NCBI GenBank assembly: GCA_026395175.1
Contig: JAPLZF010000019.1
Location: 3,115 to 67,114 of the forward strand
DNA: 64,000 bases
Reading direction: 5' to 3'
From: Candidatus Staskawiczbacteria bacterium
GTDB lineage: Bacteria > Patescibacteriota > Minisyncoccia > Minisyncoccales > Staskawiczbacteraceae
Within the stretch, counting starts at the first letter, position 1. The number at the start of each line of letters is the position of its first letter. The position numbers and the translations under genes were made by a program. Under the pieces are notes generated by a model. That model made no database searches, was not told the origin of the DNA, and saw only the letters and a list, made by a program, of their open reading frames with translations. Shown in pieces: positions 20,110-59,111 of the stretch.

Positions 20110-20760
20110 TTATTTTAAAATTCTTCCTCGTAATTCTTTAGCTGTTTTTTCGAAAAATTCTTTAAGCTCATCAATTGTTATTTTTTTTATCATTCTTGGC
20201 AACGCTTCTATCCTCTTTACTTTTGCCAACTCCCCGCCAAGAAAAATATCTTCAATTTTAATGCCGAATTTAATCTCTGCATCTTCGCGTATTTCGTCCA
20301 AACTAAATTTACTGAGCAAAAAATAAATATCAACAAAATCTTTTGGATCAAATCGGTCAAGCAAAGTCATTAGTTTATTGGCCGCGATATCTCTTAAGCT
20401 GTCTGTTTTTATATTTTTCCATTCGGTTGGTTTTTCTAATTGCTTGAAAGGATATCTTGTAAATTCAACTTTTAATTCTTCTTTTCCAATTTCAAAATAA
20501 AACTGGCTTCTGTCATAAATTTTTTCATAATTAATTTCGTTTGCTCCGATTATGCCTTTCAGTTTTTCCGCAAAGCTATGCAAGAAAGCTCTGTCGGGCT
20601 CTTCAAAAATAAAAAAATCTAAATCATCAGAAAAACGATGCTGCAGATAGCAAACTGCCAGCGCCGTTCCGCCGGATAAATAAAAACCTTCTAAATTTGG
20701 TTCTTGCCCTACTGCGCTGATAACCTTTTCCTGAATATTTGTTAAAATTTCTTGTCCCAT
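20110..20760 (-). CDS. Nucleotidyltransferase AbiEii/AbiGii toxin-family protein
   Basis: 216-aa ORF; GGTALAVCYLQHRFSDDLDFF nucleotidyltransferase motif characteristic of AbiEii (type IV TA toxin). Confidence 0.75.
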   Translation of the reverse strand: MGQEILTNIQEKVISAVGQEPNLEGFYLSGGTALAVCYLQHRFSDDLDFFIFEEPDRAFLHSFAEKLKGIIGANEINYEKIYDRSQFYFEIGKEELKVEFTRYPFKQLEKPTEWKNIKTDSLRDIAANKLMTLLDRFDPKDFVDIYFLLSKFSLDEIREDAEIKFGIKIEDIFLGGELAKVKRIEALPRMIKKITIDELKEFFEKTAKELRGRILK

Positions 20761-21558: not shown

Positions 21559-21605
21559 ATTATATTCTTTAACAAAATAGCAAGCAACATATAGGGTGTG
21601 GATAA
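21559..21605 (-). promoter_or_regulatory. Promoter of pilin paralog 1 with upstream TTATCCACA box
   Basis: minus strand TTATCCACA (21597..21605) - 9 nt - TTGCTT - 17 nt - TATAAT. Confidence 0.6.
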
Positions 21606-22137: not shown

Positions 22138-22179
22138 TTTGTTATTATTTTATTTTTTAAGCTCGACCTTTCTTAAATA

Positions 22180-22587
22180 TTATGGACAAACTGTGGCATC
22201 AAAATCGGCGCAAGCGGCAGTAACTGATTTCTTGGTTCCAGAACTGTCAACGCACCAATAATTTGCGGCTGTTGTAAGCAATTGAGAACAAGCGGCCCAT
22301 TCTGTAGCGCTTTCGACGCATACTTTGTCTGCTGTTGCTGATGGGTCTTGGTCAAAGATAGGTTTTCCGGCGGCAAAATTGGCAGCGCAGAATCCTGTGT
22401 AAGTATGATTTGTATCGTAGAATGTGGCTCCGTTTGTAAGCAAGGTTGCCATGTTTCCTTCTATTGCCGCGTCTTTGCCCTTGTTGATGTATTGGGTGAC
22501 ATTAACCAACACTATGGCGGCCAATACCGCGATAATTGCGATAACGACGATTAATTCAATAATTGTAAAACCTTTTGATTTATTCAT
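22180..22587 (-). CDS. Type IV major pilin paralog 3
   Basis: MNKSKGFTIIELIVVIAIIAVLAAIVLVNVTQYINKGKDAA; divergent C-terminus. Confidence 0.88.
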   Translation of the reverse strand: MNKSKGFTIIELIVVIAIIAVLAAIVLVNVTQYINKGKDAAIEGNMATLLTNGATFYDTNHTYTGFCAANFAAGKPIFDQDPSATADKVCVESATEWAACSQLLTTAANYWCVDSSGTKKSVTAACADFDATVCP

Positions 22588-22628
22588 TTTATTTTTTAAG
22601 TTTAAATTGTTTAATTTATTAGATTTTC

Positions 22629-22679
22629 TATACTTCGCCTTACGGCTCAGTATCTCGCCCCGTCAAACGGGACTCGACC
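22629..22679 (-). promoter_or_regulatory. Conserved two-hairpin 5' leader element, copy 1
   Basis: minus strand GGTCGAG-TCCCG-loop-CGGGG-CGAGATACTGAGCC-GTAA-GGCGAAGTAT; near-identical copy at 46751..46805 with compensatory stem changes. Confidence 0.5.
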
Positions 22680-22697
22680 TTTTTTATATTTTACTTC

Positions 22698-22743
22698 ATT
22701 TTACAGAATTAAAGATATTGACGCAATAGCAAGATGTGGATAA
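22698..22743 (-). promoter_or_regulatory. Promoter of pilin paralog 3 with upstream TTATCCACA box
   Basis: minus strand TTATCCACA (22735..22743) - 8 nt - TTGCGT - 17 nt - TAAAAT. Confidence 0.55.
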
Positions 22744-30078: not shown

Positions 30079-30116
30079 ATTATACAATAAAATCAATAAA
30101 ACAACCCTGTGGATAA
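30079..30116 (-). promoter_or_regulatory. pilM upstream region with TTATCCACA box and TATAAT
   Basis: minus strand TTATCCACA (30108..30116) ... TATAAT (30079..30084) 10 nt before the pilM ATG; -35 not convincing. Confidence 0.4.
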
Positions 30117-32511: not shown

Positions 32512-33285
32512 TTATGCCAAGACTGTATTTATAATTTGCAAAATATCATGTTTATGACTATCAGATAAAATGCCAAACATTTTTAGCATTTCTAGAAATA
32601 CTTTAATGTTATTTTCCGTTATTTCAAAATGGGCAATTTCTTTTGTTTCGGCGGTTCGCCCGATTAAACTAGTTATAGCTTTTAGCTCTGTAATCGGGAA
32701 ACATAAATATAACATCGGCTGTGTACCAACTGCATATTGTTTTTCGGTAATTTTTATCTCAGTAACTATTTCATATCCATTAAATTTATGGATTAAAAGT
32801 GGATATTTAACTTGAGTATATTCAAAATCAAATCCATTTATATTTTTTTCTATTGGGTGGCTGCGATCAATTTGCAACTCAGAATTGTTAGCAATCAAAT
32901 CGTGGCTTTGTATTGAATTAAGATAAGTGATAACACCTTCTAATTCTTCTCTCGACACTATGTTCCATTTATAAAAATACCAAATATACTCCGATAATTC
33001 ATAAAGCGCTTTAATTTTTCCATTTGCGCCAGTGAATTCGGTTTCTGGCAATGATGACTCTGCGAGTTTTTCGATTTCCTTTTTAACAACGTCATAACCG
33101 ATTTGCCATTCAACATAATTACTCAAAGCAAATCCGTCGCGTTTAACAGCTACGGGCGTTCCATATTCATTTACAATCGAACGATTTTTAACGCGAATTT
33201 TTCCGCTGACAGCGGTTAATAAAATTGGCACTTCAATTTTATGTTCCTGCTCGTTAACTAAAATTTTTGGCATATTTTTCTCCAA
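32512..33285 (-). CDS. Hypothetical protein, candidate cognate restriction endonuclease
   Basis: 257-aa ORF directly downstream of and overlapping the methyltransferase gene; no motif recognised, call rests on position only. Confidence 0.3.
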   Translation of the reverse strand: MEKNMPKILVNEQEHKIEVPILLTAVSGKIRVKNRSIVNEYGTPVAVKRDGFALSNYVEWQIGYDVVKKEIEKLAESSLPETEFTGANGKIKALYELSEYIWYFYKWNIVSREELEGVITYLNSIQSHDLIANNSELQIDRSHPIEKNINGFDFEYTQVKYPLLIHKFNGYEIVTEIKITEKQYAVGTQPMLYLCFPITELKAITSLIGRTAETKEIAHFEITENNIKVFLEMLKMFGILSDSHKHDILQIINTVLA

Positions 33286-34426
33286 ATTTAGCTCCTAATA
33301 ATTCTTTAAAATAATTTTCTATTTTTAGTTTAGCATTAGGAATTTCTCTAAATTTAAATTTATTTTTTAAAATAGGATTTGTGTGAACGCTCTGAGCAAT
33401 AAAACATTCTTTTATCTCATTAAATTTTTTATTATCAATTATCACATCACAATTTCCGATAAAATACGGCATCTTATCTGCGTATTGTTTAAAGACATCA
33501 ATATAACAATAGTATGGGAGCTTTTCCATAAATATATAAACAGTGTTATAAGTATCAGAATCGATAAAAGTACGATTACGTTTAAGCGCATTTATATCCC
33601 TTAAAGTCCAAAACTTTGCCACTGGTTTGTCATTTTTATTTAAATATTTTTTATTTGGATATTTTTGAACATAATGAACTATTGTGTCAAAATCTTTTAA
33701 ACGAAAAAGTCCGTCATCTTTTACTCTAAATTGATAATCTTGAATATAATCATAAGTCATCCCATCTTGATCTCTTTTATAAAGAGATATTAAGATGGGA
33801 AAAGCCATTCCGCGAGAAGTATCAGAAAATTCATGACTGCTTATTATTAATCCGTCAATTAATTTATAGTTTTCGGCAAATTTTGAGAGCAAAGCAAAAT
33901 TCGCTTTCTTTATTAGATAGGACAGCGGATGCAAAACACAAACGTAATCCGCTTGAAGTTTATTGTAAGAAAGCAAAAAAGACATCCCTAAATCTCTGGT
34001 TTTTATATCCGGGTCAATTTTATCTTGAACGGAAGCATCTTTTATAGAATTGCGGATTATAGAAGTTGTATCATTATACGGCGGATTACCTATGACTATA
34101 AGTTTTTCATTATTTCCAATCGTCAAGTTTTTCCGAAAAACACTTAAGAGTGAATTTTGATAAATAAAATCTACATCATCGATTCTTTTTTTTGCTTCAG
34201 AGATAGCTTTCTCATCGATATCAGCGCCGATCAATCTTTTTGCAATATTTTTTTTTGTTAAAAATGAACCATAGCCACAAGACGAATCTAAAATTGTAAA
34301 ATCTTTGATACTTTGAATGTTTTTTTGCAAAATAGAATAAGCCAAATCAACAATAACCTCCGGCGTATAATAAGAGCCAAGATTAACCGTGTCCGTATGA
34401 TTTAAATGTTCCTGATTTCTATTCAT
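33254..34426 (-). CDS. N6-adenine DNA methyltransferase (gamma-class, TaqI/Eco57I-like)
   Basis: 390-aa ORF; motif I LDSSCGYGSFL and motif IV VIGNPPYN. Confidence 0.85.
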   Translation of the reverse strand: MNRNQEHLNHTDTVNLGSYYTPEVIVDLAYSILQKNIQSIKDFTILDSSCGYGSFLTKKNIAKRLIGADIDEKAISEAKKRIDDVDFIYQNSLLSVFRKNLTIGNNEKLIVIGNPPYNDTTSIIRNSIKDASVQDKIDPDIKTRDLGMSFLLSYNKLQADYVCVLHPLSYLIKKANFALLSKFAENYKLIDGLIISSHEFSDTSRGMAFPILISLYKRDQDGMTYDYIQDYQFRVKDDGLFRLKDFDTIVHYVQKYPNKKYLNKNDKPVAKFWTLRDINALKRNRTFIDSDTYNTVYIFMEKLPYYCYIDVFKQYADKMPYFIGNCDVIIDNKKFNEIKECFIAQSVHTNPILKNKFKFREIPNAKLKIENYFKELLGAKFGEKYAKNFS

Positions 34427-45104: not shown

Positions 45105-45144
45105 CACAAAAACAAAAACTGCCTTAAGGCAGTTTTTGTTTTTG
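45105..45144. terminator. Bidirectional hairpin terminator between hsp20 and tRNA-Leu
   Basis: CACAAAAACAAAAACTGCC-ttaa-GGCAGTTTTTGTTTTTGTG perfect 19-bp stem. Confidence 0.75.
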
Positions 45145-45226
45145 TGCTCCCGAGAGGACTCGAACCTCTAACCCTTGCGGGACTGCGTCCTAAGCGCAGT
45201 GCGTATTCCAATTCCGCCACGGGAGC
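45145..45226 (-). tRNA. tRNA-Leu (anticodon UAG)
   Basis: acceptor GCTCCCG/CGGGAGC; anticodon stem CTGCG/CGCAG loop CTTAGGA; long variable arm. Confidence 0.9.
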
Positions 45227-45315
45227 ATAATAATGCTATCTTCGAGTATAACAAAAAATGGCGAAAAAAACCAGTTTCCGCCATTTTAAAATCCTACTAT
45301 TAAAAAGCATTTAAT

Positions 45316-45624
45316 TTAGAGAGAAGCAGGAATACCGAATGTGGTTCTCACAAGCGAGATGGCAACGCCAGACAATACTATTAACAATGTTCCAATAACA
45401 GCTGCTATCAAGGCCTTTTTGGCAGTTCCCGTTTTTTCTGGGCTACCGGCTGAAGTAAGATATAAAATTCCGGCAATAACCCAGCCAACAACTATAAGTG
45501 GCACGCCTACATTAACGACAGCCGTTTGAACCGAGCCTGCTATACTCCCGACATCTGCTGCATATGCGAAGCCAGGCAATACTAAAATTCCTAATAATAC
45601 TAAAAATAGCGTTTTCTTATTCAT
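45316..45624 (-). CDS. VirB2/TrbC-like (T4SS-pilin-like) small membrane protein, paralog a
   Basis: signal peptide MNKKTLFLVLLGILVLPGFAYA then two TM helices joined by LTSAGSPEKTGTAKKA loop. Confidence 0.6.
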   Translation of the reverse strand: MNKKTLFLVLLGILVLPGFAYAADVGSIAGSVQTAVVNVGVPLIVVGWVIAGILYLTSAGSPEKTGTAKKALIAAVIGTLLIVLSGVAISLVRTTFGIPASL

Positions 45625-45649
45625 ATATTTTTATCTATAAAATTATACA

Positions 45650-45997
45650 TTAAAGACCGAAAGAATTTGCCACAAATGACATGGCCCCATTAGCTAAAAT
45701 AATTAAAATTGTGCCTCCTATTGCCGAAAACAGAGCTATTTTAGCAGAATTTAATTTACTAGGGTCTCCTTGGGCTATCAAAAACAGAATGCCTGTCATA
45801 ACCCACATAATGACAACTATCCAAGTACCCACAATAACAACCACTCCCGCGATAGCTTGAGCCATACCTCCAACAGTTGCTCCACCGCCCCCGCTCCCAC
45901 CGCCGGAACAGGGAACATCACCGCATGGTCCTGCCAATGCTAAAGTAGGTGAAGCTAAAACAACCAATAAAATTAAAAATAATATTTTTTTATTCAT
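45650..45997 (-). CDS. VirB2/TrbC-like small membrane protein, paralog b (Gly-rich insert)
   Basis: same architecture; loop IAQGDPSKLNSAKIA. Confidence 0.55.
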   Translation of the reverse strand: MNKKILFLILLVVLASPTLALAGPCGDVPCSGGGSGGGGATVGGMAQAIAGVVVIVGTWIVVIMWVMTGILFLIAQGDPSKLNSAKIALFSAIGGTILIILANGAMSFVANSFGL

Positions 45998-46008
45998 ATT
46001 CTTATTTT

Positions 46009-46311
46009 CTAAGTTAATGCGGTAGTTACGATATTAATTATTGAAAAAGCTAATATAGCAACTATTATTCCTGCTATTCCCCATATTAAAGATGCTCTTG
46101 CTGTGCCAAGTTTTTCTGGAGCTCCTCCGGCAGTTAAAAACATAATACCAGCTATTATAAAACAAATAACGGCAATGCCTGTAAATACTACCCAAACAAC
46201 GTTTGCAACTGCCACGCTCAATGTTTGTATACTGTTAACCAAAGCGTGTGCTGTAATTGGCAATGTAAAAACCACTGCCAAAAGAACCAAAAATGCTGTT
46301 TTTTTATTCAT
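46009..46311 (-). CDS. VirB2/TrbC-like small membrane protein, paralog c
   Basis: same architecture; loop LTAGGAPEKLGTARAS. Confidence 0.6.
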   Translation of the reverse strand: MNKKTAFLVLLAVVFTLPITAHALVNSIQTLSVAVANVVWVVFTGIAVICFIIAGIMFLTAGGAPEKLGTARASLIWGIAGIIVAILAFSIINIVTTALT

Positions 46312-46372
46312 AAACAGGATTTTAGTTTTGCTCCGCCCGAAAGCGGAGCAAAACTAAATATATATGATTTGC

Positions 46373-46705
46373 CTAAACATGCATAGCTGTACCCACTATC
46401 GCAAGTATCGAATAAGCAAGAATACCAACTACTATACCTGCTATTCCCCAAATCGCGGCTGTCCTCGCTGTTGCAACTTTTTCTGGAGCTCCTCCTGCTG
46501 TTAAAAACAAAATACCGGCTACCACAAAAGAGATTACAGCTATTGCCCCGAATATCATCCATACAAAAGTTTCAATAGATGTTATTAAATTACCTATATT
46601 TCCAATTCCTCCCACTGTTGGGGGTGTATTTGCATCTAGAGCAAATACCACAACTGGCAAAAGCAAAGCGCCGAGTGAAGCTAAAGTTATTTTAATTTTT
46701 TTCAT
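46373..46705 (-). CDS. VirB2/TrbC-like small membrane protein, paralog d
   Basis: same architecture; loop LTAGGAPEKVATARTA. Confidence 0.6.
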   Translation of the reverse strand: MKKIKITLASLGALLLPVVVFALDANTPPTVGGIGNIGNLITSIETFVWMIFGAIAVISFVVAGILFLTAGGAPEKVATARTAAIWGIAGIVVGILAYSILAIVGTAMHV

Positions 46706-46750
46706 TTTTTTATTTATTTAATTTTTTTAATCATCATTAATCATTGAATC

Positions 46751-46805
46751 GATACTTCGCCCTGAGGCTCAGTATCTCGACCCCGCTCATGCGGAGTTCT
46801 CGACC
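46751..46805 (-). promoter_or_regulatory. Conserved two-hairpin leader element, copy 2
   Basis: minus strand GGTCGAG-AACTCCGC-atga-GCGGGGT-CGAGATACTGAGCC-TCAG-GGCGAAGTATC. Confidence 0.5.
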
Positions 46806-46816
46806 TTTATAAATTT

Positions 46817-47194
46817 TTAAAAGAAATTTTTGAAATAAGTTAATGCTGCGCTTGCCCCAGGTTGTGCTTGCACACCAATAATTCCTTGTATAATTCCAAC
46901 TATTGTTTTTGCCGCTAACCCTATGGCTATTCCAATTATAGCATATACTAAAGCTTTTTTGGCTGTGCCCATTCTTTCAGGACTGCCTGCTGAAGTAAGA
47001 TACAGAATTCCTGCAACCACAATCATCATACCTCCCAAAACTGCGATAAGGTCTCCAACTGCACCGGCAATGCCCAAAAGAAGAGCGGAAAAGTCATTAT
47101 ATTTTAATGGATTTGTTAAACCTTGAGCTGAAACAAAGCTTGCCAAGCAGAATAAATCTACAAATACGACTAAAAAAATTATTTTTTTATTCAT
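46817..47194 (-). CDS. VirB2/TrbC-like small membrane protein, paralog e
   Basis: start moved to MNKKIIFLVV because TATAAT overlaps the track start; loop LTSAGSPERMGTAKKA. Confidence 0.6.
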   Translation of the reverse strand: MNKKIIFLVVFVDLFCLASFVSAQGLTNPLKYNDFSALLLGIAGAVGDLIAVLGGMMIVVAGILYLTSAGSPERMGTAKKALVYAIIGIAIGLAAKTIVGIIQGIIGVQAQPGASAALTYFKNFF

Positions 47195-47201
47195 TAAAGT
47201 C

Positions 47202-47249
47202 ATTATACAACTTTACACAAAATATATGCAACACTCTGCTTGTGGATAA
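47202..47249 (-). promoter_or_regulatory. Promoter of the VirB2-like gene array with upstream TTATCCACA box
   Basis: minus strand TTATCCACA (47241..47249) - 9 nt - TTGCAT - 18 nt - TATAAT, then 7 nt to ATG (near-leaderless geometry). Confidence 0.55.
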
Positions 47250-47334: not shown

Positions 47335-49854
47335 TTACTCTTTTAGGCATGCTCCCGAGGCAACTTTGTCGCCGTCTTCCAACCGCATTATTCTTACCCC
47401 TTGCGTTGCCCTGCCCAACAAAGATATTGATTTTACGCTTGTTCTTATAACCTGGCCTTTTCTGGAAATAACAATCAAATCTTCTTCTTCGGCTGAATCT
47501 TCCAAGATAGATGAAAGTATTGCGTGTCCGGTTTTGCTTGTAATTTTTGCCGCTTTAACTCCAGACCCTCCTCTGCCCTGAATTTTGTACTGGGAAATTT
47601 CTGTGCGCTTTCCATATCCGTTTTCCATAACCATCAACAAATACTGCTTTGCCTTATTTTTGTCTATGACATCCATTCCAATAACTTCGTCTCCGCCCTT
47701 CAAGCGCAAACCTTTTACTCCGGCAGCTCCTCTGCCCATAGGCCTTATATCTTTCTCTTTAAATCTGATAGAAATTCCGTTTTTGGTTGCCAAAATTATG
47801 TCATTTTCGCCTGTTGTTTTAACAACTTTTTTCAAGGCATCTCCTTTTTCAAGCTTTATGGCAATAATTCCGGATTTTCTGACATTTTCAAATTCCGACA
47901 AATCTGTCTTTTTAATTCTGCCGTTTTTTGTAATCATTACCAAATATTTCTCTTTACTGACAGCTTCTTTGCCGGGAGCCGGTTTTTCCATTGGCACTAA
48001 CGACAAAACCTTTTCTTCGTTGGAAAGCTCCAAAAAGTTTAAAAGTCCTCGGCCTCTGGCGACCCTGTTGCCTTCCGGAATTTCGTAAACCTGTGTTTGG
48101 AAAACTTTTCCGGAATCTGTAAAAAACATTAAATTGTCATGCGTTGAGGCGGTCAAAAAATGCTCAACAATGTCGTCTTGCATTGTTTTCATTCCCATAA
48201 TTCCTTTTCCGCCTCGTTTTTGAATTTTGTAAGTTGCAGGATTTATGCGTTTTATGTATCCGCCGGTTGTTAAAGTAACAATTGTTTCTTCTAAAGGAAC
48301 CAAGTCAACTTCGGTAATTTCTCCCAGCTTTCCTTTGACAACTTTTGTTCTTCTTTTATCTCCAAATTTTTCTTTCAGTTCTAAAAACTCTTTTTTGATA
48401 ATAGATTTCAGTCTTTCCGGGCTCTTCAAAATTGCCATCAAGTCTTTTATTTGCTCTAAAATTGCTTTCAGCTCGTCTTCTATCTTTTTTCTTTCCAATC
48501 CTGCCAGTGTTTGAAGCCTCATTTCCAAAATTGCCACTGCCTGTCTTTCGGTAAGCTTAAATTTTTTAATTAAATTGACTCGGGCTTCTTCCTTATCTGC
48601 TGATTTTTTAATTGTTTGAATAACCGCGTCAATATTTTTTAAAGCAACCATTAAGCCCTCTAAAATGTGCGCCCGCTCTTTGGCTTTTTCTAAGTCATAT
48701 TTTGTTCTGCGGGTTACAACCTCTTCTCTGTGCTTGATAAAATATTTTAAAACATCTGACAAAGACAAAATTTCAGGCTGAATGCCGTCAACCAAAGCCA
48801 GCAAATTCAAGTGGAAAGTTTTTTGCAAACTTGTAAATTTATAAAGCCTGTTTAATGTCCTTTGAGGCTGAAATCCTCTTTTTATATCAATAACAATTCT
48901 CATTCCTTCCCTGTCTGACAAATCGCGAATGTCTTTTATTCCTTCAATTTTCTTTTCAGAAACCAATTCCGCCATTTGCTCAACCAAAGTTGACTTTAAA
49001 ACCTGGTAGGGGATTTCTGTAATTATAATTTGTTCAGAACCGTCTTTTTTTTCTACAACATCTGCTTTGCCTCTCATCAAAATAGCTCCCTTGCCTTGAG
49101 AATAAGCAGAAATTATTTCTTTTTGGTCGTAAATTATTCCGCCGGTTGGAAAATCTGGGCCTTGAATAAATTCAAATAAATCTTCTGTTTCTGCTTTTGG
49201 ATGGTCTAGCAAATGTATAGAAGCATCTAAAACTTCTGTTATGTTGTGGGGCGGAATATTTGTTGCCATCCCAACTGCAATTCCCAAACTTCCATTTAGA
49301 AGCAATTGTGGCAAAGGCGAGGGCAAAACAGTTGGTTCTTGCGTTGAGCCGTCATAGTTATCAATAAACTTAACAGTGTCTCTTTCAATGTCGCGCAGCA
49401 TTTCGTCTCCAATTTTTGACAATCTACACTCTGTATAACGGGCAGCGGCAGCACCATCGCCGTCTATACTGCCAAAGTTTCCTTGGCCGTCAACCAAAGT
49501 GTAGCGCATGTTAAAATCTTGCGCCATTCTGACCAAAGACTCATAAACTGCTGTATCTCCGTGCGGGTGATAACTTTTTAAAACTTCTCCAACAACCGCC
49601 ATAGACTTTCTGTGCTTTGTGTTTGACCGCAATCCAGAATCCATCATTGCATACAAAATCCTTCTGTGGACTGGCTTTAACCCATCTCTGACATCGGGAA
49701 GAGCGCGCGCCACAATAACTGACATTGCATAATCAATGTATGATTCTTTAAGCTCTGTTACCATTTCCCTTTGGCTCACATTTCCTCTGTTGCTGTCTCC
49801 TTGCTTCCCGTCTTCTTGAGCGTGGGCTCTTGATTTTTTATCTTCTTCAGCCAT
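47335..49854 (-). CDS. gyrA: DNA gyrase subunit A
   Basis: 839-aa ORF; active-site region [10 protein letters not shown], GyrA-box-type C-terminal beta-pinwheel repeats. Confidence 0.96.
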
Positions 49855-50691: not shown

Positions 50692-51063
50692 TTAAACTAA
50701 TTTGTTTATTTTTAACTCTTTTAACAAACCTGCCATTTTTTCTTTTAGTTCTGGAATATCTTCTTTTATAGTTTTCCAAACCACTTTTATATTTACTCCA
50801 AAATATTCGTGTATCAATTTATTCCTCATCCCCTTTACCTTTGCCCACTTTATTTCGCTGTTTATTTTTTTTATTGATGTGGGAACATTTTTTGTTGCTT
50901 CTCCAATAATTTCTATTGCGCGGACAACTGCATAAATCGTTTTTTTGTCGTTTTGGAACTCTTCAAAACTAAAACCTTCAACAAATTTTTCTATCTCTTC
51001 TATTGAATTATAGATATCTAGAATATAATCCTTATATTCTCTCTTCGACGAATTCTTTTTCAT
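50692..51063 (-). CDS. hepT: HepT-like (DUF86) ribonuclease toxin
   Basis: 123-aa ORF; RNKLIHEY = Rx4HxY motif. Confidence 0.8.
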   Translation of the reverse strand: MKKNSSKREYKDYILDIYNSIEEIEKFVEGFSFEEFQNDKKTIYAVVRAIEIIGEATKNVPTSIKKINSEIKWAKVKGMRNKLIHEYFGVNIKVVWKTIKEDIPELKEKMAGLLKELKINKLV

Positions 51064-51464: not shown

Positions 51465-52199
51465 TTATTCTAACGCCAATTTTTCAAGATCTGGTAGCTT
51501 ATTCTTATTTTTTATCCAGCCGTCAATTCCAGCTCTACATCCTACTGGACCACCCATAAACTCCAAAAAGAAATCTCTTTGCGTTACCGAAGGAAAAGTT
51601 TTTTTACCTAAATAATCAACATAACTGTGGCGCTTATTGTTTTCCAAAAATTCTTTGACTTTTTTGGGATTTTTTATCCCTTTTTCCTTCCAGCCGGGCT
51701 CAATTATAGAAATTAGATTAGCGTGCACATATAAAAATGCATTTCTCAATTGGTCGTCGTCCTTAATATGAACTGCACGAAATTTATTAAAAAGATGCCC
51801 CATACGCTGATATTTCTTGTTAAAATATTTAGCGTATCCGCCATTAACTTTTTTCATGAATTCAGTTATACCATTGTCCTCTAACTGCTTTACAATTAAA
51901 TGTAAATGATTGGGCATAAAGGAAAAAGCAAGCACATCCACTAATTTATCTCTCTCGTCAATATATTCAGAAAGGTGGGATGTCGGACGTCCCACCGACT
52001 CTCTTTCTTGCTTCTTAAATCTATTACGAGCCCTTCTCCGTTCCCAAATTTCTACCTTTTTACTATTATTAAATTCGTAAATAGAAAAAATACCGCGATA
52101 AAAATCACTCTCGTCAACAAAAATAACTGTGTCTCCGACGGCCCTGCTCACGACATGATAAATTTCGTCGTTAACTAAAAGAGGTTTGATATAACTCAT
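51465..52199 (-). CDS. IS200/IS605-family Y1 (HUH) transposase, RAYT-like
   Basis: start moved to MSYIKPLLVNDEIYHVVSRAV; HUH motif MPNHLHLIV; later FLYVHANL Tyr region; the track ORF N-terminal extension runs through a repeat and overlaps the next gene. Confidence 0.7.
   Translation of the reverse strand: MSYIKPLLVNDEIYHVVSRAVGDTVIFVDESDFYRGIFSIYEFNNSKKVEIWERRRARNRFKKQERESVGRPTSHLSEYIDERDKLVDVLAFSFMPNHLHLIVKQLEDNGITEFMKKVNGGYAKYFNKKYQRMGHLFNKFRAVHIKDDDQLRNAFLYVHANLISIIEPGWKEKGIKNPKKVKEFLENNKRHSYVDYLGKKTFPSVTQRDFFLEFMGGPVGCRAGIDGWIKNKNKLPDLEKLALE
51974..51999. repeat. GC-rich palindrome family 1 copy inside the RAYT CDS
   Basis: GGTGGGATGTCGGACGTCCCACCGAC; encodes SVGRPTSHLS in frame. Confidence 0.9.
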
Positions 52200-52249
52200 T
52201 TTTTTTATTTTATTTATTATATTATTTATTATACCAAAAATAATTAAAA

Positions 52250-52275
52250 GGTGGGATGTCGGACGTCCCACCGAC
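52250..52275. repeat. GC-rich palindrome family 1 copy upstream of the RAYT gene
   Basis: GGTGGGATGTCGGACGTCCCACCGAC, 51 nt upstream of the ATG. Confidence 0.9.
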
Positions 52276-52297
52276 TCGCTAAACTGTTTTCTGCAAA

Positions 52298-52330
52298 AAA
52301 AATCCCCACCTATGCTAGCGTGGGGCCTTG
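52298..52330 (-). terminator. Hairpin CCCCAC-loop-GTGGGG plus T-run after the 52357.. gene
   Basis: minus strand GGCCCCACGCTAGCATAGGTGGGGATTTTTTTT. Confidence 0.6.
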
Positions 52331-52356
52331 CCTGAAAAAACGGAAAGTGAGCGTTG

Positions 52357-52767
52357 CTACGCTCGGGAAGCGAGCTCTCTGATGTTGGCAAACTCTCGAC
52401 TGGACGCCAGCTTTTTCTTTGAGATACCAACTTTGAGAGATGGATTGTCTGCTAGAATTCGGTCAGTCTGTAAGGCGAGTTTCTCCAAGCTCGTTGCAGC
52501 TACCTGATATTCGGGAAGACTGGCGCTTGGTTTTGGCATATGCATTTCCGCAGTATCACACAGCCGCAGACATTCAGCAACGAGCGTGTAAAAAGGCTCC
52601 CCCAACTCCGGTTTAACCGCTCGCAATTCGTTCACGCCCTCCCATGCTGCAACCCGTAAACAGTACTTCTTCGATTTGGCATCTGGGGTAGCCAAATACG
52701 CCAACGCCATATCCAAGACGCTCATCAGTATTTCATTCACCTCCGAAAAATCACCCAATCTACACAT
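52357..52767 (-). CDS. Hypothetical protein in GC-rich island
   Basis: start moved to MCRLGDFSEV (AAGGA 8 nt upstream); GC-rich; no motif recognised. Confidence 0.45.
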   Translation of the reverse strand: MCRLGDFSEVNEILMSVLDMALAYLATPDAKSKKYCLRVAAWEGVNELRAVKPELGEPFYTLVAECLRLCDTAEMHMPKPSASLPEYQVAATSLEKLALQTDRILADNPSLKVGISKKKLASSREFANIRELASRA

Positions 52768-55619: not shown

Positions 55620-57026
55620 ATGAGTACTCTCACGGAAAAGCCGGCAAAGAAGCCGACGACAAGGAAAGAGAAAACTGGGCTCGCGCAACTCGGCGACGTG
55701 GTCAAAGGGACTGTGCTGGCAATACCGAAGCTTCGGTCACTGCCCAACCTGAATGGTCTGACGACGACCGTCGAGGAGAAAATGAAATTGGCACGCCAAA
55801 TTGAAGAAGATGTGACGACCGCGGTGAAGTTTCTCGGCGACGCGCGATGCCGGCTCGAGGCGTGCCAAGACCACCTCGAGCGCAAGATAGTGAACTCCGA
55901 AGTGGCGCAACCGATGACCGAAATGAGAGAATACCTTAAGGGCGTACTCGCCCTCGAGGACTTGATTTATCGGTCAACCGCAGCAATGGCATACATGAAG
56001 GCAAGTTTCAGCCAGCAGTTCGCAAGCGAAGAAGAGGCTATCGAGATGCTGACTGGCTTGGTCAACCGCGGTCTCCTTGTTCATGGAAGCGTCAGTAGCG
56101 CCATTACCGTCGGATACAAACACTACGACATCTCGCGGGAATTCGGGCTGGACGAAACCGACATCGCCGATGTCAAGGATGTCATCGCGAAGTTCGCTCG
56201 CGTCCTGAAGACGTTGGTTCGCCTTCAGCGTCAAGCCGAGGTAAAGAAGGCGTTGAAAAACGCCGAAATCACCCTGGACCAAGCGCTGGACGGCGCCAAC
56301 GGCACATGCCTACTGGATATTCCAGCCGAGCAGTACGAGAAAAACGGAGAGACCTTATGGCGCGGTGGCGGACAAATGCTGGTGCGATTCACCAACGAGG
56401 AGGTGATACCCATTCAGGGCATCGGCTCCATTGAACAGAACGTAAAGGAAATGGTGGAGACAGACGTCCGTCTCAGGTGCAACACTCTTTTGTGGGATGT
56501 GCCTCCTGGAAGCGGTGAAACTGCTTTCGAGAAAGTCCGCACCGGAGTGATGCGGAGCATGGACCTCAGCTCCGGCGAGGCGAAGACCTACGTCAGCAAG
56601 ATGAGGATTCTGTGGTACTTTGTCCGCCGGGCAGTGAATGCCGCAAAAGACAAGGAAGCCACGGACAAACTCAAGGACGAGTTTCGTGGCAGGGCAACCA
56701 TCTCGGCAACGGAATTCTTCGGACTTAACGGCAACGGCGGACAACCCTGCCAAGGCACCGCGCTACTGGAGTTCGAGGGTTCGTTTATTGTGAAAGGTGG
56801 CGGAACGGTCCAACACCTTTTCCTCCTGGCGAAAAACTTGGAGGATGACGGCGAAATGGTCGTCGAGGTTGCGGAGGTGCCCGAGCATCTTCAGAAAATT
56901 CTCGGCGAGTTCGTCGGCAAGAAGTACTCCGCGAGAGATGACTTCGCCAGCTGCCCCGAGCAGTTGCGGAGAATCCTCCGAGGAATCCGAGGCCATGCGG
57001 ACATGGCACACGCGACCGCCGAGTAA
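55620..57026 (+). CDS. Hypothetical 468-aa protein, strongly GC-rich orphan
   Basis: long ORF with good RBS, own promoter and terminator; basic N-terminus (KPAKKPTTRKEK); no NTPase, nuclease or RT motif recognised by eye. Confidence 0.7.
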   Translation: MSTLTEKPAKKPTTRKEKTGLAQLGDVVKGTVLAIPKLRSLPNLNGLTTTVEEKMKLARQIEEDVTTAVKFLGDARCRLEACQDHLERKIVNSEVAQPMTEMREYLKGVLALEDLIYRSTAAMAYMKASFSQQFASEEEAIEMLTGLVNRGLLVHGSVSSAITVGYKHYDISREFGLDETDIADVKDVIAKFARVLKTLVRLQRQAEVKKALKNAEITLDQALDGANGTCLLDIPAEQYEKNGETLWRGGGQMLVRFTNEEVIPIQGIGSIEQNVKEMVETDVRLRCNTLLWDVPPGSGETAFEKVRTGVMRSMDLSSGEAKTYVSKMRILWYFVRRAVNAAKDKEATDKLKDEFRGRATISATEFFGLNGNGGQPCQGTALLEFEGSFIVKGGGTVQHLFLLAKNLEDDGEMVVEVAEVPEHLQKILGEFVGKKYSARDDFASCPEQLRRILRGIRGHADMAHATAE

Positions 57027-58971: not shown

Positions 58972-59039
58972 AAAATTATAAAAAAAATTCCCGATACCCT
59001 AATTATCACGATAGCGAAAATTAGAGTATCGGTAATGAG

Positions 59040-59111
59040 GGCCTGTAGCTCAGTGGTAGAGCACGTCTCTTATAAAGACGGGGTCGAAGGTCCGATCCCT
59101 TCCAGGCCCAC
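59040..59111 (+). tRNA. tRNA-Ile (anticodon UAU)
   Basis: acceptor GGGCCTG/CAGGCCC; anticodon stem CGTCT/AGACG loop CTTATAA. Confidence 0.85.

Follow-up and report, generated by a model that had tools for sequence, protein, structure and literature searches.

A 64-kb stretch of DNA (here called the window) carries, between gyrA and a tRNA-Leu gene, five consecutive small genes whose products resemble the pilins of conjugation and of type IV secretion systems (T4SS). An earlier note on the sequence had pointed out the array and the lack of secretion genes around it, and the question raised by the locus is what a set of pilin-like proteins does in such a place. The source can be named, as the product of the first gene (protein e) is 100% identical to NTY81_04000, encoded on a 73,289-bp contig of a Candidatus Staskawiczbacteria metagenome-assembled genome (Patescibacteria), which stands for an ultra-small bacterium of groundwater type. 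The favoured explanation, to which we assign a probability of roughly 0.6, is that the products of the five genes are subunits, some major and some minor, from which a monoderm-type T4SS encoded elsewhere in the genome builds a pilus or conduit. The array itself belongs to a kind that was catalogued in 2025, and only the control signals that it has in common with type IV pilus (T4P) genes look new.

The five array proteins and their family

The array consists of five co-oriented open reading frames (ORFs) on the minus strand (45316-47203), labelled e, d, c, b and a from the first gene to the last (Table 1). The NCBI annotation of e is the 125-aa form; the start of an alternative 128-aa ORF falls inside the -10 hexamer of the promoter. 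All five proteins can be aligned over their full length, and all have the loop motif L(T/I)(S/A)(A/G/Q)G(S/A/D)P(E/S)(K/R)..(T/S)A(K/R). Each has three hydrophobic segments, the first of which is signal-like (its n-region, MNKK or MKK, is basic, and residues 22-23 hold a site of the A-x-A type), while the second and third appear as long hydrophobic helices in the hydropathy profile. The AlphaFold2 (AF2) model of mature e was built from an alignment of 124 sequences, made up of mature e, the four other array proteins and 119 homologs of e from databases. It has a mean pLDDT (predicted local distance difference test) of 84 and places helices at residues 12-44 and 49-82, linked by the four residues S-A-G-S; P-E-R opens the second helix, and K-K follows five residues on. 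Every product is shown by these predictions to have a Sec-type signal peptide with an A-x-A site and two long helices joined by a four-residue loop, after which come basic residues. The earlier note had described five genes of 100-125 aa with a signal peptide, two transmembrane helices and a conserved loop, and the genes lie where it had placed them. Identity between the paralogs of the window is 27-40%, except for c and d (52%), a pair that looks like a recent duplication.

Profile searches place these proteins in a family. The gathering threshold of PF18895 (T4SS_pilin), 26.6 bits, is passed by four of the five paralogs (a, c, d and e; scores in Table 1). Paralog b falls below it, and scores 77.9 bits with a family hidden Markov model (HMM) built in the present analysis, the training set of which contained b itself. 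Against PF04956 (TrbC/VirB2; threshold 27.9 bits), e reaches 24.5 bits (E 3.2e-5) over model positions 7-97 of 98, just under the cut-off, while a, b, c and d have no match to that model. With NF045849, the model for the Mbov_0395/MMCAP2_0565 protein of Mycoplasma integrative and conjugative elements (ICEs), all five score 10-22 bits and so remain under the 40-bit cut-off, indicating a related family rather than membership. Across the 124 aligned sequences the matches are broader: PF18895 is found in 123 (best E 5e-21), PF04956 in 101 (E <= 1e-3, best 2.6e-12) and NF045849 in 119 (E <= 1e-3, best 3.7e-13). The conjugative-pilin architecture claimed from the letters is supported by these HMM results, and the family-level link to conjugative pilins, as drawn from profile matches, is firm.

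The likeness extends to the features by which VirB2-type proteins are known (a signal peptide that is cleaved off and a pair of hydrophobic helices with a short, positively charged loop between them), all of which are present in the predictions and are also those of the TrbC/VirB2 pilins of PF04956. Classical TrbC/VirB2 genes, however, lie inside the virB/trb operons of diderms and are usually single-copy, unlike the array described here. The NF045849 protein is likewise a small two-helix protein, of monoderm or wall-less conjugation (MPF-FATA host range), but that family is ICE-borne, whereas the array sits in a conserved housekeeping neighbourhood. Judged by profile, the proteins belong to PF18895, are distantly related to TrbC/VirB2 and fall outside every experimentally characterised pilin subfamily. 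The array is best regarded as a chromosomal operon whose five family members diverged long ago.

Two simpler identities were tried and rejected. Chance ORFs or generic small membrane proteins are ruled out by 183 homologs of e (E <= 1e-3) and by the size of the family: after clustering at 50% identity, its profile matches 53,275 representatives at E <= 1e-3, of which 7,787 reach E <= 1e-10. A defence effector is ruled out as well, e giving just a trivial two-transmembrane match of 16.8 bits.

Conserved position and paralog order

Twelve related loci were obtained by scanning species-representative genomes with e, and two further metagenome contigs by exact-protein look-up. Each locus of sufficient length contains 3-6 same-strand pilin genes according to the family HMM. 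In 10 of the 12 loci gyrA lies directly upstream of the array, seven of these being close relatives (GyrA 75-90% identical) and three distant ones (55-58%), and in four loci the genes for Hsp20, PrsW, a tRNA synthetase and TsaD lie downstream. The possibility that the array is cargo of a mobile element or prophage is ruled out by this conserved housekeeping synteny, by its host-like GC content and by the lack of any homolog among the 72,556 plasmids searched. In distant lineages, the gene directly upstream of the array codes for an extracellular solute-binding protein (SBP_bac_1/8; Table 1), and some of the array members there are 260-450 aa long.

Position within the array is also conserved. 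In four relatives (L003, L007, L009 and L010) the best matches of e, d, b and a are found at array positions 1, 2, 3 and 4, the exception being b in L010, which matches position 4; the match of a is with the last gene of the array in all four. The best match of d is at position 2 in the seven closest multi-gene relatives. The six-gene array of L008 fits this pattern as regards e, d, c and b, while the best match of a is at position 4 there and not at the last; L006, a truncated locus with overlapping ORF calls, is informative for e and d only. Orthologs at the same position are 49-67% identical. Since this is higher than the identity between paralogs (except for c and d), and since the positions match, the paralog types must predate these species and their order must have been maintained. 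The comparison argues for purifying selection on the paralogs in their kept order, and for distinct, non-redundant roles.

Arrays of this type have been surveyed before. The Pfam models used here had already been run on 3,035 Patescibacteria genomes, and the main text of that study describes VirB2-like pilins in 1,948 VirB4-containing assemblies and 441 arrays of 2-11 pilin genes, with a mean paralog identity of 25% and a maximum of 54% (PMC12102498, Microb Genom 2025). The arrays so described resemble the present one in consisting of tandem, divergent PF18895/PF04956 genes that are chromosomal and often apart from virB4 (PMC12102498); identity here is 27-52%. Under the definition used there, two or more PF18895/PF04956 genes in tandem or one gene apart, the five adjacent genes form an array. 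The same main text makes no mention of gyrA (PMC12102498). Likewise, the parts of the literature covered by our search hold no report of the gyrA-linked position, of the fixed paralog order, of the TTATCCACA box and AAAGGTCGA motif shared with T4P genes that are described below, or of the hairpin that comes after gene 2.

A different role has been suggested for patescibacterial arrays in the survey, namely that of a variation cassette (PMC12102498). Applied to the present locus, the paralogs would be interchangeable and would diversify fast to match hosts or evade recognition, as would fit five proteins so divergent from each other, the one recent duplication (c and d) and the differing size of related arrays, of four to six genes. 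The virB2 arrays of Bartonella and Anaplasma, which are host-associated bacteria as well, also have several tandem divergent copies, and those are read as antigenic or host-range variation. Matching of hosts or evasion of recognition has reportedly been proposed for the paralogs of both genera. At the present locus the types of paralog and their order have been kept from species to species, an argument for roles that are fixed and distinct: best matches occupy the same array positions in four relatives and largely in a fifth, and the types are older than the species and kept in order under purifying selection. Furthermore, the genes are tightly packed behind one promoter, and therefore are likely to be expressed together and not alternately. 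For this locus a variation cassette is therefore considered quite improbable.

Possible roles: with a secretion system elsewhere or as a membrane assembly

All ORFs of at least 500 aa in the window were scanned for VirB4 and VirD4, and neither was found. All but one of these ORFs are housekeeping or T4P genes; the exception, of 512 aa, has no Pfam match, and its homolog in L003 has a glycosyltransferase domain. VirB6 was not detected in the 64 kb either, where a few small ORFs remain unannotated and could include a VirB6-like protein. The absence of VirB4, VirD4 and VirB6 that the earlier note had remarked on thus stood up to the scan. Large ORFs beside the related arrays were considered as VirB4 candidates and rejected, being M28 peptidase/spermine-synthase fusions and solute-binding proteins.

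Pilin genes without nearby machinery are not odd in this group, because they are already common in Patescibacteria: a pilin gene is near virB4 in 1,135 of the 1,948 VirB4-containing assemblies and away from it in about 40%, according to the main text of the survey (PMC12102498). In its Table S1, VirB4 is listed in nine of the ten Staskawiczbacteria assemblies examined (PMC12102498). In Southlakia epibionticum ML1, a series of predicted pilins lies in a T4SS cluster (SEML1_0006-0019), and these pilins were found to be essential by transposon sequencing (PMC10633639, Cell 2023). The two cases differ in that the pilin genes of S. epibionticum are inside the T4SS cluster and their essentiality has been shown, whereas the array here stands alone beside gyrA and is known from its genes.

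Several results weigh against a T4SS pilus. The association with T4SS genes on which the naming of PF18895 is based was not found at these loci: no such gene was detected in the window, which extends 45 kb from the array in one direction and 17 kb in the other, nor up to 10 kb from the array in any of the 12 related loci. No PDB sequence matches the family profile. Foldseek searches against the PDB gave only generic helical hairpins (best E 1.2), with VirB2 and TraA absent from the top 50, and hhalign comparisons with Agrobacterium VirB2, whether as a single sequence or as a 40-sequence profile, were not significant. A tblastn search of 72,556 plasmids found zero homologs. Many members of the family are, moreover, single chains with one signal peptide and 2-8 tandem hairpin domains, for example P0121 (352 aa, four domains), P0122 (606 aa, seven domains) and P0133 (820 aa, eight domains), and also P0004 and P0125. 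These fusions appear to be real and not errors of gene calling, because internal signal peptides are absent. To our knowledge, none of the characterised conjugative pilins has such a tandem-hairpin design, and we know of no member of the family for which filament formation has been demonstrated.

The fusions therefore leave room for a membrane-embedded assembly instead of a classical pilus. The proteins would then be T4SS-independent membrane hairpins forming a ring, pore or envelope scaffold, somewhat like a c-subunit ring, and the name pilin would reflect distant common ancestry with VirB2/TrbC; the array products may, in that case, not be T4SS pilins but a separate hairpin polymer or membrane assembly. 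This would agree with an array that in 12 related loci is found beside gyrA and never by T4SS genes, with arrays of distant lineages directly downstream of a solute-binding protein gene, with the frequency of tandem-hairpin chains behind one signal peptide, and with structural and narrow-profile tests in which nothing connected the family specifically with the solved pilins VirB2 and TraA. Against it stand the matches of TrbC/VirB2 and of the ICE pilin-like family to most of the aligned sequences, the VirB2-like genes near virB4 in more than half of the VirB4-positive assemblies, as that survey's main text reports (PMC12102498), and the essential predicted pilins inside the T4SS cluster of S. 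epibionticum (PMC10633639). The fusions themselves need not exclude a filament, since hairpins of the VirB2 type have both termini on one side of the membrane, which would make such chains topologically compatible with one. A membrane assembly is, on balance, the main alternative but an unlikely one, and the preferred reading remains that a T4SS encoded elsewhere builds the proteins into a pilus or conduit.

Control signals shared with type IV pilus genes

The first gene is preceded by a sigma-70-type promoter and, upstream of this, by a TTATCCACA box, in the layout given in Table 1. The earlier note had described a promoter with this box and near-leaderless geometry. The box and the short leader are real, but the geometry is not special to e. 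In the related arrays examined, the -10 element is 6-8 nt from the ATG in all eight. Motifs of the Shine-Dalgarno (SD) type occur in just 3 of 51 genes of the window, and TATAAT is found 6-15 nt before the ATG in many. The leaderless-like arrangement is a habit of the genome and not peculiar to e, because SD motifs are rare and TATAAT is often near the ATG; translation initiation in the host genome appears to be largely SD-independent, with leaders short or absent.

Exact copies of TTATCCACA occur four times in the window, compared with 0.53 expected, a number that was reached in none of 100 shuffled sequences. All four are on the minus strand and each is just upstream of a pilus gene, the other three preceding two type IV pilin genes and pilM, with which the T4P operon begins. 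Among the relatives, an exact box is found upstream of gene 1 in L005, L006, L007, L009 and L010, while that of L008 has one mismatch and that of L003 has diverged. It is kept upstream of pilM in L019, L020 and L021, and upstream of a type IV pilin gene in L019. Over the window and all related sequence, 13 of the 14 exact boxes are upstream of pilus genes. Two classes of spacing between box and -10 are seen, one of 21-23 nt and one of 31-33 nt. As these are about one helical turn apart, the pattern is that of a transcription-factor site, and the common layout at the array and at T4P genes makes TTATCCACA the mark of a candidate regulon.

The 9-mer is identical to the consensus DnaA box. A replication origin near the array is ruled out, as the boxes are not clustered and the number of one-mismatch copies (20, with 16.3 expected) is that of chance. 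No dnaA gene was found among the ORFs of the window that were scanned.

A second shared signal is found in the RNA. The spacer between e and d contains a AAAGGTCGAG motif followed by a two-hairpin element, noticed earlier as an internal RNA element and confirmed by its folding statistics (Table 1) and by a second copy in the window, in the 5' untranslated region (UTR) of a type IV pilin gene. The two copies differ by compensatory changes in hairpin 1, while a 28-nt core across hairpin 2 is identical except for a 4-nt loop. The sequence AAGGTCGA (usually AAAGGTCGA[T/G]) occurs three times in the window, each time on the sense strand and associated with a pilin gene: 11 nt after the stop codon of e, in the 5' UTR of the same type IV pilin gene, and 12 nt after the stop codon of the latter. 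In 229 kb of related loci there are 12 sites, all of them on the sense strand and in pilin intergenic regions. Eleven lie inside pilin arrays after a pilin stop codon, usually at 10-25 nt (46 nt in L010), and the twelfth precedes a type IV pilin gene, in its 5' UTR. Loci with the AAAGGTCGA/AAGGTCGA motif are L003, L005-L011, L014, L015 and L019, and so include the distant L011, L014 and L015. RNA 5' or 3' ends at AAAGGUCGA would point to processing.

The hairpin between d and c, also seen in the earlier reading, was recovered as a strong structure without a U-tail (Table 1). The window shares this feature with each of the six close relatives in which it could be checked (L003, L006-L010): gene 2 is followed by a strong hairpin, of -24 to -36 kcal/mol. 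Across these relatives the hairpin sequences are unrelated and mostly lack a U-tail. Judging from the conserved position alone, the hairpin may act by attenuation or by protection of the upstream mRNA, yielding more of e and d than of c, b and a. Neither this hairpin nor the e-d element belongs to an Rfam family, at the gathering threshold or at E <= 10. Mimicry of rRNA by the e-d element is ruled out, since its alignment to E. coli 16S and 23S rRNA scores in the range of shuffled sequences.

The hairpin-2 module, GATACTGAGCC-N4-GGCGAAGTAT, was also seen in an unrelated metagenome contig (L018, 85-253), where it is located apically in an RNA that resembles the L10 leader and precedes rplJ-rplL. 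An exact search of metagenome contigs for hairpin 2 gave this one match in a plausible context. The leader scores 43.6 bits against RF00557, for which the cut-off is 44, and the match hints at a protein-binding hairpin that is reused across mRNAs.

Two interpretations of the shared signals were considered. The first is that the array and the T4P genes form one regulon with a shared cis-code, in which TTATCCACA is placed 21-23 or 31-33 nt before the -10 element and the AAAGGTCGA mRNA motif stands after or ahead of a pilin cistron. This is put forward tentatively, as a proposal more doubtful than probable. The second is that the array proteins serve the type IV pilus itself, for instance as membrane accessory subunits, which would explain why, in the window as well as in L019-L021, TTATCCACA and AAAGGTCGA recur at pilM and at type IV pilin genes, and would suit a window whose sole pilus machinery is the T4P cluster. 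The array proteins, however, have no prepilin N-methylation motif, their signal peptides are of the signal peptidase I type, and their family similarity is to conjugative pilins and not to T4P components; nor would co-regulation of two surface systems need any physical association between them. A part in the type IV pilus is accordingly thought to be very unlikely.

Table 1. Coordinates of the array, its control signals and associated features (positions refer to the window unless a locus is named).
Feature	Coordinates	Strand	Remarks
TTATCCACA box of the array	47241-47249	-	perfect DnaA-box 9-mer; 33 nt upstream of -10
Promoter of e (sigma-70-type)	47202-47231	-	order: TTATCCACA, 9 nt, TTGCAT (47226-47231), 18-nt spacer, TATAAT (47202-47207), 7 nt, ATG
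Paralog e	46817-47194	-	125 aa from MNKK start; array position 1; PF18895 40.0 bits
AAAGGTCGAG motif and two-hairpin RNA element	46749-46808	-	e-d spacer; fold z = -3.2
Paralog d	46373-46705	-	110 aa; position 2; PF18895 33.7 bits
Strong hairpin between d and c	46321-46358	-	U-tail absent; 17 pairs; -29.4 kcal/mol; z = -6.5
Paralog c	46009-46311	-	100 aa; PF18895 30.4 bits
Paralog b	45650-45997	-	115 aa; mature N-terminus Gly/Cys-rich; PF18895 16.6 bits (under cut-off)
Paralog a	45316-45624	-	102 aa; last gene; PF18895 35.3 bits
Intrinsic terminator	45255-45287	-	canonical, T-tailed; closes the operon just before tRNA-Leu; terminator scan
tRNA-Leu	45144-45226		array flank; ARAGORN and Rfam
gyrA	47335-49854		other array flank
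Second copy of two-hairpin element	22625-22681	-	5' UTR of type IV pilin gene 22180-22587
AAGGTCGA sites	22163-22170, 22674-22681, 46800-46807	-	usually AAAGGTCGA[T/G]
TTATCCACA box of pilM	30108-30116	-	head of T4P operon
TTATCCACA boxes of two type IV pilin genes	21597-21605, 22735-22743	-	
Solute-binding protein gene	L011 5550-6887		distant lineage
Solute-binding protein gene	L012 4033-5511		distant lineage
Solute-binding protein gene	L013 6061-7407		distant lineage
Solute-binding protein gene	L015 7430-8746		distant lineage
Solute-binding protein gene	L016 778-2073		distant lineage

Flanking genes and the remainder of the window

The neighbours of the array are, as first described, tRNA-Leu and gyrA. 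A complete T4P cluster occupies about 16.5-30 kb and encodes PilM, PilO, PilB, PilT, PilC, a prepilin peptidase and at least five N-methyl pilins. The rest of the window is filled with housekeeping genes, including recA, ftsK, rpoB, rpoC, ftsW, ligA, recG and tsaD; also present, besides gyrA, are genes for a class-I aminoacyl-tRNA synthetase, a PrsW protease and Hsp20, as well as ftsH and S1.

Dispersed among the housekeeping genes are defence and mobile genes (20110-20760, 50692-51063, 32512-34426 and 51465-52430), namely those for an AbiEii toxin (inside the T4P cluster), a HepT-like RNase, an R.Pab1-type restriction endonuclease adjoining an N6 DNA methylase, and an IS200-like transposase remnant. 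A 468-aa ORF at 55620-57026 (plus strand) has no Pfam match and lies in a GC-rich patch (0.47-0.56, compared with about 0.37 elsewhere) that is not rRNA. It has a 35%-identical homolog in L007, where its syntenic place is kept (FtsH, X, NYN, S1). At 59039-59111 (plus strand) there is a tRNA-Ile with the anticodon UAU, identified by ARAGORN. Such a tRNA is uncommon in bacteria, where AUA is usually read by a lysidine-modified CAU tRNA.

Proposed function and its meaning

If the array does encode the subunits of a T4SS pilus or conduit, the following course of events can be proposed. Transcription would start at the sigma-70-type promoter, the -10 element of which is 7 nt before the AUG, giving a leaderless or near-leaderless mRNA, and the upstream TTATCCACA site would be bound by a regulator that also controls T4P promoters. 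The hairpin after d, lacking a U-tail, would attenuate transcription or stabilise the upstream mRNA, so that e and d would become major subunits and c, b and a minor ones. After cleavage by signal peptidase, the proteins would reside in the membrane as hairpins with both termini outside and the basic loop in the cytoplasm. A predicted T4SS elsewhere in the genome (VirB4, VirB6 and a VirB3-like protein) would then extract and polymerise the subunits into a pilus or conduit, which would be used in contact with the host cell.

Patescibacteria account for a large part of bacterial diversity, and their way of life seems to be attachment to host cells; in the one species tested the T4SS and its predicted pilins are essential. 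In Staskawiczbacteria and their relatives, the set of pilin paralogs is fixed and has a constant order, and it occupies a conserved place among housekeeping genes. Its conserved signals suggest that the first two genes and those after them are expressed at different levels, and it has a promoter box and an RNA motif in common with T4P genes. Predictions follow for the stoichiometry of the subunits and for the co-regulation of the two appendages. If the shared regulon is true, and if DnaA binds the boxes, a genome-reduced epibiont would couple both of its appendages to replication initiation or to the cell cycle.

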